DNA of 64,000 bases, taken from positions 1,707,273-1,771,272 of the forward strand of contig OZ244950.1 of assembly GCA_965222435.1 (NCBI GenBank), in the 5' to 3' direction. A model generated the notes under the pieces. The model made no database searches. It worked only from the letters and a program-made list of their open reading frames with translations, and was not told the DNA's origin. Shown here one piece after another: positions 61,419 through 64,000 of this stretch. The stretch is from Candidatus Poribacteria bacterium (GTDB taxonomy: Bacteria; Poribacteria; WGA-4E; PCPOR2b). The translations under genes were made by a program, and so were the position numbers. How positions within the stretch are numbered: position 1 is the stretch's first letter; each line of letters opens with the position of its first letter.

Positions 61419-62345
61419 ATGGCTATTTTTCGATTAAAAGTAGAAGACGATAATCTGCACAATGCCGAACTCGTCATCGCAAAAAAAACTGACATCGAAC
61501 TTGAAAAGCATCTTGAGAGTTGGCTTGAAAATAGCCCATGGGCACTTGTCGAAGGAGAACCTACTCTGTGGATTGGTAGACAAACAAGTGTCAATGTCGA
61601 AGAAAGCACCATCTTCTCTGACCTACTGGGTATTGATTCTGAAGGAAATCTTGTCATCGTCGAACTGAAAAGGGGCAAGGCTCCAAGGGACGGCGTCGCA
61701 CAACTGCTCGAATACGCGGAATGGGCAGAAAAACTTTCAGATGAGCAGATTCGTGAAATAGCAGAAGCTTACTTCCAGACTGCGAAAAAAGAGACGACGT
61801 TTCAAGACTCCTTCAGCGAGATGTTTGAAAACGAAATGCCAGTCCTGAATCGTAGGCTACGTTTATTTATTGTAGCAGAAGAGATACCAATCTCGGTATC
61901 GCGCGTCTGCAGATTTCTCCGAACCTCCCATGGCATGGATATCAGTTGTCTAACTGTTTCAACATTTCAAACGGAATCGGGTGAAGTACTGATCAATACG
62001 GAAGCAAAGGTTGGAGAAGAAGATGCCGTTGCCCCCAAAGTGGCAAGGCAGGCTCCTTTGCAGACTCCGCGTTGGTTGGGCGACAAACCGGTAAGGGATG
62101 TAGTATTGGAAGCAGTGCAGGAATTAACAGGAAAGAATACAAACATTGAATTTGCACCCAAAGATGTCTCCAAACTCATTTCAAAGAAGTATCCCGACTT
62201 CAAGTTAAGCAATGTGGGGCCCGAACTTACTGCAGGAAGTCCCAATCACTCGTCATATCATCATTATTCTGGCAACCGTAAATATTATTGGTGGGTAAGA
62301 CCTGGAATTTATCGTCTATATGACCCCAAAAGAGACTCTGAATAA
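61419..62345 (+). CDS. PD-(D/E)xK nuclease-superfamily protein (NucS/DUF91-like core)
   Basis: DLLGIDSEGNLVIVELKRGKAPRDGVAQLLEYAEW contains the D...ExK arrangement. Confidence 0.5.
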   Translation: MAIFRLKVEDDNLHNAELVIAKKTDIELEKHLESWLENSPWALVEGEPTLWIGRQTSVNVEESTIFSDLLGIDSEGNLVIVELKRGKAPRDGVAQLLEYAEWAEKLSDEQIREIAEAYFQTAKKETTFQDSFSEMFENEMPVLNRRLRLFIVAEEIPISVSRVCRFLRTSHGMDISCLTVSTFQTESGEVLINTEAKVGEEDAVAPKVARQAPLQTPRWLGDKPVRDVVLEAVQELTGKNTNIEFAPKDVSKLISKKYPDFKLSNVGPELTAGSPNHSSYHHYSGNRKYYWWVRPGIYRLYDPKRDSE

Positions 62346-62377
62346 AGCATTACCCAATCAAAAAGAGATAAGCCAGA

Positions 62378-62605
62378 ATGGCAAAGATTGATAAACTAAA
62401 GGAAGAAATTGGCTGGTTAAAAATTATATTCGCCATCCTGATTGCCACTGACATTTCACTGGTTGCTTGGGTGGTTCAAAACTACGGAAAAACCAGCCTC
62501 CTTTTGCTTATAGTTGGTACGATAGGGGTGCTTCTATTTACACTTGTGATCATTTGGATTAACAGAGTTGCATACCGAAAGATTAATGAATTGGAGGAAT
62601 TGTGA
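62378..62605 (+). CDS. small two-TM membrane protein
   Basis: 75 aa, two hydrophobic helices. Confidence 0.4.
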   Translation: MAKIDKLKEEIGWLKIIFAILIATDISLVAWVVQNYGKTSLLLLIVGTIGVLLFTLVIIWINRVAYRKINELEEL

Positions 62606-62697
62606 TGGAATGGTTTGCGGTCTTTGTGGTTATAGTGTTTTTCCTTGGTATAGGCATCGTCACACGAGATGCTATAAAAAACGCCAACAAACGTTAA
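62605..62697 (+). CDS. 30-aa hydrophobic peptide (not in ORF track)
   Basis: ATG overlapping the previous stop (TGATG), preceded by ggagga; MEWFAVFVVIVFFLGIGIVTRDAIKNANKR. Confidence 0.3.
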   Translation: MEWFAVFVVIVFFLGIGIVTRDAIKNANKR

Positions 62698-62768
62698 CAA
62701 TTAACCGCTGTGTCCGTTGCCGGTAGGTTTTGGGGCAAACTCGTTAGACCGATACACACCTAAAGGAA

Positions 62769-63005
62769 TTGGAAAATAATATGAAAATCAACTGGCGAGA
62801 TTGTATCGTTAGTACACCCGAAATACTACGGGGCAAGCCGCGTATTAAGGGCACGAGAATCCCCGTAAGTCTTATCCTTGGATATTTGGCAGCAGACCAG
62901 ACCGCAGAGCAGATTATTGCCGAGTTTCCAGATCTTCAGAAAATGCAAATTCTCGCATGCCTCGATTATGCACGGGAGTTAGGAGAAGTTGGGGTAGCAG
63001 TTTAA
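62769..63005 (+). CDS. DUF433 domain protein
   Basis: GKPRIKGTRIPVSLILGYLAADQTAEQIIAEFPDLQKMQILACLDYA matches the DUF433 pattern. Confidence 0.65.
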   Translation: MENNMKINWRDCIVSTPEILRGKPRIKGTRIPVSLILGYLAADQTAEQIIAEFPDLQKMQILACLDYARELGEVGVAV

Positions 63006-64000
63006 TGGAATTGACCAAACCTACATCAGAGTTAAAGAGCTCTGTGCCGTTTGACCAACCCTTGGATCAAGCCCATCTGGATATTGATGACAAGAAGCGG
63101 GCAAATCTCCTCGCTTGGCGTGGGCAATTCTCGCCTCAGTTCGTTCAAGCTATTCTTGAAAACTATACTGACAAGGATGATGTAGTTCTTGATCCATTTG
63201 TGGGTAGCGGAACAGTGCTAGTGGAGTCTGCTCATCTAGGTCACGAGGCATTTGGCTATGAAGTAAATCCTGCTGCTGAATTATTGGCCAAGGTTTACAC
63301 GTTTGCTAGTTACAGCAGAAGAGAACGGAATTCCTTGATTTCAAGCACGGATCGTTACTTATCAAAGTTCATTCCTTTGGGACTTCCGCTCTTTGAACAA
63401 GGTGGCGTAAGTTCTAACGATGGCATATCTATCACGCCACTTGTTTCTAATTTGACTCAACTAAAAAATCGCGACGTTAAAGCCTTGGTTGAAGCCTTAA
63501 TCGTAAAATTAGATTTGAGGGAACACAGCATTTCAACAGAATTCTTTTGGTCAAAATGGAACGAACTCCGTTTCCTCATTGAAACCTTGCCACAAGCTAA
63601 AAAAAAGATTTCCATATCATTGGGAGATGCAAGATATCTACCGCTAGATGATAACGTTATCGATTTCGTTCTTACTTCTCCACCTTACATTAATGTGTTC
63701 AATTACCATCACAATTACCGCGCTTCGGTTGAGATGCTGGGGTGGAAGCCGCTCGTATCAGCAAAATCTGAAATTGGAGCAAACCGCAAGTTCCGGCAGA
63801 ATCGGTTTCTAACGATTATACAATACTGCATTGATATGAGTTTATCACTATCTGAACTGGTAAGGGTTTGTCGCGATACCGCAAGAGTGGTATTTGTTGT
63901 AGGTAGAGAGTCAAACGTTCACAAAACCGCCTTTTTCAACGGTGCTATTTTACGTCAACTTGCCGAAGATGTTGTTGGTATCCGAACGACTCTACAACAA
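63005..64000 (+). CDS. SAM-dependent N-methyltransferase, probable DNA methyltransferase (3' end beyond window)
   Basis: Own translation from ATG 63005 (overlaps DUF433 stop as TAATG): motif I VVLDPFVGSGTVLVES then motif IV VLTSPPYINVF; open to the window end. Confidence 0.5.
   Translation, partial: MELTKPTSELKSSVPFDQPLDQAHLDIDDKKRANLLAWRGQFSPQFVQAILENYTDKDDVVLDPFVGSGTVLVESAHLGHEAFGYEVNPAAELLAKVYTFASYSRRERNSLISSTDRYLSKFIPLGLPLFEQGGVSSNDGISITPLVSNLTQLKNRDVKALVEALIVKLDLREHSISTEFFWSKWNELRFLIETLPQAKKKISISLGDARYLPLDDNVIDFVLTSPPYINVFNYHHNYRASVEMLGWKPLVSAKSEIGANRKFRQNRFLTIIQYCIDMSLSLSELVRVCRDTARVVFVVGRESNVHKTAFFNGAILRQLAEDVVGIRTTLQQ

Follow-up and report, generated by a model that had tools for sequence, protein, structure and literature searches.

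A mosaic of separate units at a variable site of Candidatus Poribacteria: a probable Bpu10I-family restriction-modification cassette in the place of a DUF5615 toxin gene

The window analysed here is a 64,000-nucleotide (nt) stretch of Candidatus Poribacteria DNA (contig OZ244950.1, assembly GCA_965222435.1), and its 3' end carries five closely spaced genes on the forward strand. They encode, in order, a 308-amino-acid (aa) NucS-like protein, a 75-aa and a 30-aa hydrophobic protein, a DUF433 protein and a DNA methyltransferase (M) whose gene runs past the end of the window. An initial annotation had treated the five as one candidate module related to restriction-modification (R-M) or defence. 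We contend instead, with a probability of roughly 0.8, that this region is a mosaic of separate units, in which a Type II R-M cassette of the Bpu10I family has replaced the toxin gene of a DUF433-DUF5615 toxin-antitoxin (TA) pair.

All five open reading frames (ORFs) were found again on the + strand with the positions and overlaps given in the initial annotation (Table 1), and the Pfam and PADLOC domain calls agree with its description of the genes. The ATG of the 30-aa gene overlaps the TGA of the 75-aa gene by 1 nt (TGATG), and the ATG of M overlaps the TAA of the DUF433 gene by 1 nt as well (TAATG); an alternative start of the DUF433 gene is the TTG at 62769. Each of the five genes has many homologues, and the pairwise ratios of nonsynonymous to synonymous substitution (dN/dS) against Poribacteria orthologues lie between 0.10 and 0.37 for all of them. 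These homologues and ratios identify the five ORFs as real genes and not chance ORFs.

Table 1. Positions of the genes and of the fusion junction discussed in the text
Feature	Position in window	Strand	Remarks
308-aa ORF, predicted NucS-like PD-(D/E)xK nuclease with winged helix	61419-62345	+	
75-aa ORF, two hydrophobic segments (predicted transmembrane)	62378-62605	+	
30-aa hydrophobic peptide, one predicted transmembrane segment	62605-62697	+	GGAGGA 6 nt upstream
DUF433 (COG2442) antitoxin-type gene, 74 aa from ATG	62781-63005	+	Pfam DUF433 5.7e-23
Methyltransferase (M), 332 codons within the window	63005 to beyond 64000	+	Full length 415-422 aa in relatives
Fusion junction ATG GAA TTG	63005-63013	+	Two apparently toxin-derived codons, then the putative native TTG of M as codon 3
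Rieske [2Fe-2S] protein gene	60908-61339	+	Conserved left flank, outside the island
Second DUF433 gene, 134 aa	1607-2011	+	Pfam 7.1e-13

The DUF433 gene and the replacement of its toxin

The DUF433 protein matches Pfam PF04255 over the complete model (positions 1-56 of 56) and the structure PDB 2GA1 at 9e-4. DUF433 (COG2442) has been predicted to act as a DNA-binding antitoxin towards PIN toxins, no other neighbour being conserved, and its fold, a three-helical bundle of the DNA/RNA-binding kind, is thought to regulate TA operons (PMC2701414). The combination of DUF433 with PIN_10 has also been named as a TA system (PMC5499597). The gene in the window resembles the known DUF433-DUF5615/PIN_10 pairs (COG2442-PIN; VapB45-VapC45 of M. 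tuberculosis) in that its clade is mostly toxin-coupled: among 80 metagenome loci used as a control, whose DUF433 proteins share 69-78% identity with that of the window, a DUF5615 gene follows in 61, mostly with an overlap of -1 or -4 nt, and none has a methyltransferase. It differs from those pairs in that nothing but the first two codons of the toxin gene is left, so that there is no TA system at the site. No DUF5615 homologue was detected anywhere in the window (best tblastn E = 0.39), and M occupies the toxin position.

Close relatives show what stood at this position. Contigs encoding an identical nuclease (P0005, 91% identical to that of the window) split into two alleles. In three loci (L026, L029 and L030) the order is Rieske protein, nuclease, 75 aa, 30 aa, DUF433, DUF5615/PIN_10 and oxidoreductase, the DUF433 being 96% identical and its stop codon being overlapped by 1 nt by the toxin gene (122 aa). 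In three others (L027, L028 and L031) the genes from the Rieske protein to DUF433 are followed by M (415 aa), by a RE_Bpu10I restriction endonuclease gene (R, 303 aa) and by the oxidoreductase, the L031 contig ending inside R. At the nucleotide level the window has 94% identity to this second group, rising to 100% within the 75-aa, 30-aa and DUF433 genes. Identity between the two alleles is 96-98% as far as a point about 10 nt inside the gene that follows DUF433 (breakpoint of L026 versus L027), and homology resumes right after the stop codon of R, about 27 nt before the ATG of the oxidoreductase gene. The exchange is thus ORF for ORF, with M-R in the place of the toxin gene.

A putative intermediate of this exchange has survived in L004. 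Here codons 1 to approximately 50 of DUF5615 are retained (84% nt identity to L026) behind a pseudogenised DUF433 gene, and this remnant is followed by about 100 bp ending in GGAGATGACGA-TTG-ACT, after which M begins. The sequence GGAGATGA[AC]GA-TTG-ACT forms the start of M in L004, in L006 (Thiohalocapsa) and in L007 (another site in another Poribacteria genome). Since the ribosome-binding site (RBS) and the TTG start are common to all three loci, they would represent the native 5' end of the cassette; about 25 nt further upstream are common to L004 and L006 only. In the window, M starts with ATG GAA TTG ACC and the toxin gene of the other allele with ATG GGA TTG AGA, leaving a microhomology of (G)ATTGA at the junction.

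On the basis of these comparisons, the ancestral state at this position would be a canonical DUF433-DUF5615 (PIN) TA pair with overlapping stop and start codons. An R-M cassette of approximately 2.2 kb, without mobility genes and with a GGAG RBS and a TTG start of its own, would have inserted into the toxin gene. What was left of that gene, together with the 5' region of the cassette, would then have been lost in a microhomology-mediated deletion at (G)ATTGA. This deletion would have fused M onto the toxin ATG, with the TAATG overlap inherited from the TA pair, such that M, and through M also R, would now sit in the toxin's translationally coupled position behind DUF433 and would presumably be co-transcribed with it.

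R-M substitutions, and the insertion of a Type II R-M system into an operon-like structure, with junctions at start and stop codons, have been described before (Furuta, Abe and Kobayashi, 2010, PMC2853133). The present case is like those in the lack of mobility genes, in the allelic substitution between conserved flanks and in junctions that fall at a translation start and stop. It is unlike them in that the replaced gene is a TA toxin, that M is fused in frame to the toxin start and that no long target duplication is seen. Neither flanking direct repeats nor mobility genes were found for the cassette, and a repeat search across 61250-64000 gave nothing above chance.

The coupling of DUF433 to a methyltransferase, which had been read as an alternative to its usual pairing, thus appears to be what remained after an R-M cassette took the place of the DUF5615 gene, as the two alleles and the L004 remnant indicate. 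The DUF433 of the window would then be an orphaned antitoxin whose cognate toxin gene has been replaced. It remains intact in most R-M alleles despite the loss of the toxin, with a dN/dS of 0.19-0.37; it could have been retained to regulate the operon, because M needs it for translational coupling, or as a safeguard against paralogous toxins. Near the other end of the window there is a second DUF433 gene (Table 1), and a 61-aa ORF that overlaps it starts with MLRLAADEN and resembles a truncated DUF5615/PIN N-terminus, without a Pfam hit. The locus (1607-2177) may represent the decayed remains of a further TA pair of this genome.

The methyltransferase, its endonuclease partner and their predicted specificity

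M carries motif I (DPFVGSGT) at residues 63-70 and motif IV (TSPPY) at residues 224-228, about 155 residues apart, and matches Pfam N6_N4_Mtase (2.8e-14) and PADLOC MTase_II (3.8e-20). The order of motif I before motif IV is that of the alpha class of amino DNA methyltransferases, and SPPY is commoner among N4-cytosine enzymes. M is therefore assigned, from its motifs, to the alpha-class amino DNA methyltransferases, the predicted product being N4-methylcytosine or N6-methyladenine. No break interrupts the reading frame within the 332 codons seen here, and its dN/dS is 0.10-0.19. We also considered and rejected an rRNA or tRNA methyltransferase: the Trm14 and RlmL models match only the S-adenosylmethionine (SAM)-binding motif of about 30 residues, far below their cutoffs. 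M is a DNA methyltransferase of an R-M system, in line with the R-M-like character suggested at the outset, and the suggestion that the gene set may extend beyond the window holds too.

One genome per species was scanned with the methyltransferase fragment of the window, which returned 25 loci with M homologues of 45-91% aa identity in Poribacteria, Thiohalocapsa, Trichodesmium, Pirellulales, Acidobacteriota, Chloroflexota, Myxococcota and others. The best matches are metagenome-assembled genomes of Candidatus Poribacteria (90-91% aa) with the same upstream genes (two amidohydrolases and the Rieske protein). Directly downstream of M, a homologue of the 303-aa gene is present in all 25 loci; 20 of these copies are complete, four are broken or truncated, and the one in L019 is no more than a 21-aa stub. 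A Bpu10I-family endonuclease gene or its remnants accompany M in 24 of the 25, as they do in L027, L028 and L031, and the start of R overlaps the stop codon of M in relatives. No conserved DUF433 or C protein was found upstream of M in other phyla. The best explanation of M is that it serves as the methyltransferase of a Type II R-M cassette, whose R gene is expected just 3' of the window end in the source genome.

The assignment of R to the Bpu10I family rests on several searches. The orthologue in L001 matches RE_Bpu10I (PF09549) at 1.2e-109 (365.5 bits against a cutoff of 25) over model positions 1-218 of 218, the R orthologue matches the BbvCI subunits in PDB at 5e-9 and 1e-7, and homologues carry the source annotation 'Bpu10I family restriction endonuclease'. 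When R was aligned to BbvCI R2, the ExK motif was kept (AECK) and a Met was found at the position of R2 Met186, which is the state in Bsu36I, BlpI and Bpu10I, enzymes that leave the central base pair unspecified (PMC6326814). Other collections contributed little: PADLOC had no match for the endonuclease, DUF433 or the small peptides, NCBIfam had no name for the endonuclease or DUF5615, and the Bpu10I-family genes in the plasmid collection were all distant (25% identity).

In the Bsu36I/BlpI/Bpu10I/BbvCI group, which the R of the relatives resembles in its full-length PF09549 match, its ExK motif and its central-N Met, Bpu10I and BbvCI each consist of two subunits and are accompanied by two 5-methylcytosine methyltransferases. 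The present system differs from these two in having a single amino methyltransferase (SPPY) with the alpha-class motif order, and the relatives' R is of low identity to the solved BbvCI subunits (E ~1e-8). A single R gene beside a single M gene would suit a homodimer acting on a palindrome of the xxTNAxx type, as in Bsu36I (CC|TNAGG) and BlpI (GC|TNAGC). M would accordingly methylate, and a homodimeric R would cleave when unmethylated, a 7-bp interrupted palindrome of that type.

Our best guess for the recognition site is CC|TNAGG. Across 18 non-Poribacteria R-M loci, 19 copies of CCTNAGG were counted where 58.5 were expected (ratio 0.32, P = 2e-9), compared with a ratio of 0.70 for GCTNAGC in the same loci, and the window itself contains 3 CCTNAGG against 9-11 expected. 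Another sequence, CCCNGGG, is also strongly depleted, with 0 observed against 7.5-14 expected in L001-L003 and 3 against 9-15 in the window, which hints at another restriction specificity, for example of the CCNGG or CCCGGG type, active in these genomes.

The nuclease, the membrane-protein pair and the variable site

The 308-aa protein, for which database entry P0001 is 100% identical, matches the Pfam families NucS_C and DUF7669, with a nuclease part at approximately residues 1-200 and a C-terminal winged helix (DUF7669) at approximately 222-308. A profile search against 1.84 billion representative proteins recovered 4182 related clusters at E <= 0.001. Among 72 aligned sequences, the most distant with 24% identity, E29, D68, G76, E82, K84, Q95 and Y99 are invariant, and in the profile alignment D68, E82-x-K84, Q95 and Y99 fall on the NucS segment VD..ELK..Q..Y, which we take to hold the catalytic D160/E174/K176 of P. 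abyssi NucS. The protein is accordingly assigned to the PD-(D/E)xK nucleases, its active site being intact, and the NucS/DUF91-like core first proposed for it is borne out, the catalytic D, E and K being kept together with Q and Y. A first AlphaFold2 model, built on a shallow alignment (57-100% identical), had a predicted local distance difference test score (pLDDT) below 50 in the nuclease domain, and the Foldseek hits obtained from it carry little weight; a second model from a deeper alignment reached a mean pLDDT of 92.

An orthologue of NucS was also considered and rejected, as the protein has no Pfam NucS_N hit and scores 34.3 and 14.3 bits against the NCBIfam NucS equivalogs, whose cutoffs are 216 and 252. 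It differs from NucS/EndoMS in lacking the N-terminal domain and in carrying the DUF7669 winged helix at the C-terminus instead. The best PADLOC match is the phage defence candidate PDC-S11 (2.6e-38), and the nuclease domain of Shedu (SduA_C/DUF4263 of SduA) was not found above threshold in the protein. The protein probably acts on DNA as a single-gene system, guided by its winged helix, either in defence or as a selfish nuclease. An orthologue in L117 (L117:5001-6437; 84% identical) carries an extra N-terminal HEPN_Swt1 domain (PF18731) of about 165 aa, giving an architecture of HEPN, NucS-like nuclease and winged helix.

For the 75-aa protein 354 clusters of homologues were found, almost all with a length of exactly 75 aa and none with a Pfam domain, and all of its taxon-labelled homologues are from Poribacteria or an unclassified 'bacterium'. 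Its gene has a dN/dS of 0.12-0.20 and is absent from L002, L003 and L004. The 30-aa peptide is conserved in L001, L003 and L005 (83-87% aa, dN/dS 0.14-0.2), with a counterpart of 34 aa in L113 and another, the uncalled ORF MMEWLAIVGVVVFILGIGIVTRDAIKHAKKH, in L115. In both of these other contexts (L113:4001-4329 and L115:2558-2880) the 75-aa gene and its partner of 30-34 aa occur with the same stop/start overlap. The two thus appear to form a conserved, translationally coupled and independently placed pair, which suggests a small mobile unit settling in variable regions. We rejected the pair as part of a TA system or of the nuclease unit, as it is absent from the 80 DUF433 loci and present alone elsewhere. 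Its neighbours in the other contexts are an MNT/HEPN gene, nearby in L113, and a HinfI-type R-M system, which it directly follows in L115.

The five genes lie in a site that varies strongly among related Poribacteria. On its left side, the Rieske gene is syntenic and 93-95% identical at the aa level in L001-L005, L026-L031, L116 and L117, and homology among alleles stops just past its stop codon. The upstream amidohydrolase and Rieske genes have a GC content of about 0.55, and within the region it falls to 0.40-0.46. Between the Rieske gene and a GFO/IDH/MocA oxidoreductase gene we found at least eight gene combinations. The site holds only the nuclease in L116, and only DUF433-M-R in L002, from 20 nt after the Rieske stop codon. 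L001 contains the 75-aa and 30-aa genes, a DUF433 without its last 8 residues and M-R, without the nuclease, and L003 contains the nuclease, other small ORFs, the 30-aa gene, DUF433 and M-R. The five genes of the window recur in L027, L028 and L031, followed by R in the first two and by the start of R in the third, and L005 has the same five with an additional 80-aa ORF and an internally deleted R. The TA allele, with DUF433-DUF5615 in place of M-R, is found in L026, L029 and L030. In L117 a 478-aa HEPN_Swt1-nuclease fusion is followed by the 75-aa gene, DUF433 and a 29-aa DUF5615 stub, with no R-M genes, and L004 combines a pseudogenised DUF433, a frameshifted M, a truncated R and a DUF559/Vsr-like gene.

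Some of these loci hold further genes or show advanced decay. The small ORFs between the nuclease and the 30-aa gene of L003 (L003:9295-9755) resemble an antitoxin and a MazF/PemK-like N-terminus (VVLIPFPF...), with no significant Pfam hit. L004:9533-12477 is a decaying locus in which DUF433 has two in-frame stops, the 5' remnant of DUF5615 persists and the last 123 residues of R are left; a 271-aa gene of the DUF559/MTES_1575 family (Vsr-like endonuclease fold) has been inserted before the oxidoreductase. In L005, M outlasts its decayed R.

Given the presence and absence of genes across these states, there is no single five-gene module, and the 308-aa protein is not the partner of M. As far as gene content can tell, the site holds four independent units: the R-M cassette, the orphaned DUF433, the stand-alone nuclease and the membrane-protein pair.

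Alternative explanations and implications

Several observations weigh against our account or parts of it. The window ends inside M, so that the R of the source genome lies outside the sequence seen, and R is often decayed in Poribacteria: L004 has a truncated copy, L005 one with an internal deletion, and of about 19 long contigs about 6 carry just a fragment. The prediction of CCTNAGG is weak for Poribacteria, where GCTNAGC is equally depleted, and CTNAG is low in all sets. For the nuclease, the PDC-S11 models, which are about 350-380 positions long, are matched in their nuclease half only (positions 15-206 of 358 for the best match), the C-terminal half (DUF7669) being different, and no anti-phage test of PDC-S11 was found in the literature searched, in which one preprint mentioning PDC-S11 was not covered. 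Also, a scan of 61250-64000 found no promoter or terminator, with nothing above chance.

The original view of the five genes as one R-M-like or defence module, with the 308-aa protein as the nuclease partner of M and with DUF433 and the peptides as accessory parts, draws on their common strand, close spacing, two stop/start overlaps and lack of a terminator between them, on the intact active site of the nuclease and on the recurrence of the exact five-gene order in L027, L028 and L031. In relatives, however, each unit is also met on its own, at this site or elsewhere: M-R is found without the nuclease in L001, L002 and L006-L025, the nuclease without M-R in L026, L029, L030, L116 and L032, and the peptide pair without either in L113. 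As M is moreover accompanied by its own Bpu10I-family endonuclease gene, or the remnants of it, in all but one of the scanned loci, we regard a single module as very improbable. A more serious alternative, which we nonetheless place well below even odds, is that M is solitary in the source genome, where R would have decayed and M been kept for an epigenetic function or for protection against related R-M systems. The damaged copies of R in L004 and L005 and its near absence in L019 are consistent with this, as is the intact and constrained reading frame of M. Among the Poribacteria members of endonuclease clusters P0121-P0125, found on contigs of about 150 kb to several Mb, many are fragments of 61-217 aa, and about one third of the long contigs hold nothing longer; the endonuclease gene would therefore often be pseudogenised or lost. 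Against a solitary M stand the intact 303-aa R of L027 and L028, at 94% nt identity to the window, and that of L001-L003, the L031 contig ending within the gene. In L004, where R is badly decayed, M is frameshifted too.

It can also be speculated that DUF433 was co-opted as a regulator comparable to a C protein, which would bind DNA, autoregulate the operon and in this way set the timing and ratio of M and R expression; we consider this doubtful. Purifying selection has persisted on DUF433 in most R-M alleles after the toxin was lost, its fold is one thought to regulate TA operons (PMC2701414), and with the cassette's own 5' region deleted M would rely on upstream signals. Carried further, DUF433-M-R could be a working chimeric addiction operon, in which an R-M system was captured by a TA operon, DUF433 acts as an analogue, outside the Xre family, of a controller protein, sets M and R expression and is also needed for translational coupling, and the R-M system takes the place of the PIN toxin as a poison/antidote pair; we hold this to be just as improbable. 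In L001, M and R are intact with a DUF433 that is shortened and uncoupled from M, in L004 DUF433 is a pseudogene, and in L006-L025 the cassette works without any DUF433. DUF433 is also kept beside a truncated toxin in L117, where there is no R-M system, so that its retention does not need one. Unlike R-M systems controlled by C proteins, the upstream gene here is a DUF433 and not an Xre-type helix-turn-helix gene, and no operator-like inverted repeat or promoter was found upstream. DUF433 may instead be kept to neutralise paralogous DUF5615 toxins; the window has a second DUF433 locus. We favour the mosaic of separate units, with the R-M cassette in the place of the toxin gene.

The apparent new pairing of DUF433 with a methyltransferase thus resolves to known parts, a Bpu10I-family Type II R-M system and an orphaned antitoxin. 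The R-M cassette, the antitoxin and the nuclease are of known kinds, and the most instructive part of the locus is the reconstructed history of the toxin-gene replacement. With the intermediate that survives in L004, it offers a record at the nucleotide level of how a minimal R-M cassette without mobility genes can take the place of a toxin gene along with the start codon and the translational coupling of that gene. In annotation, the locus warns us, tight spacing and stop/start overlaps in a variable site do not prove joint function. The site is a hot spot of Poribacteria at which nucleases, TA pairs and R-M genes turn over fast and the endonuclease gene often decays, and it is a useful place to study the dynamics of defence genes in these uncultured sponge symbionts.

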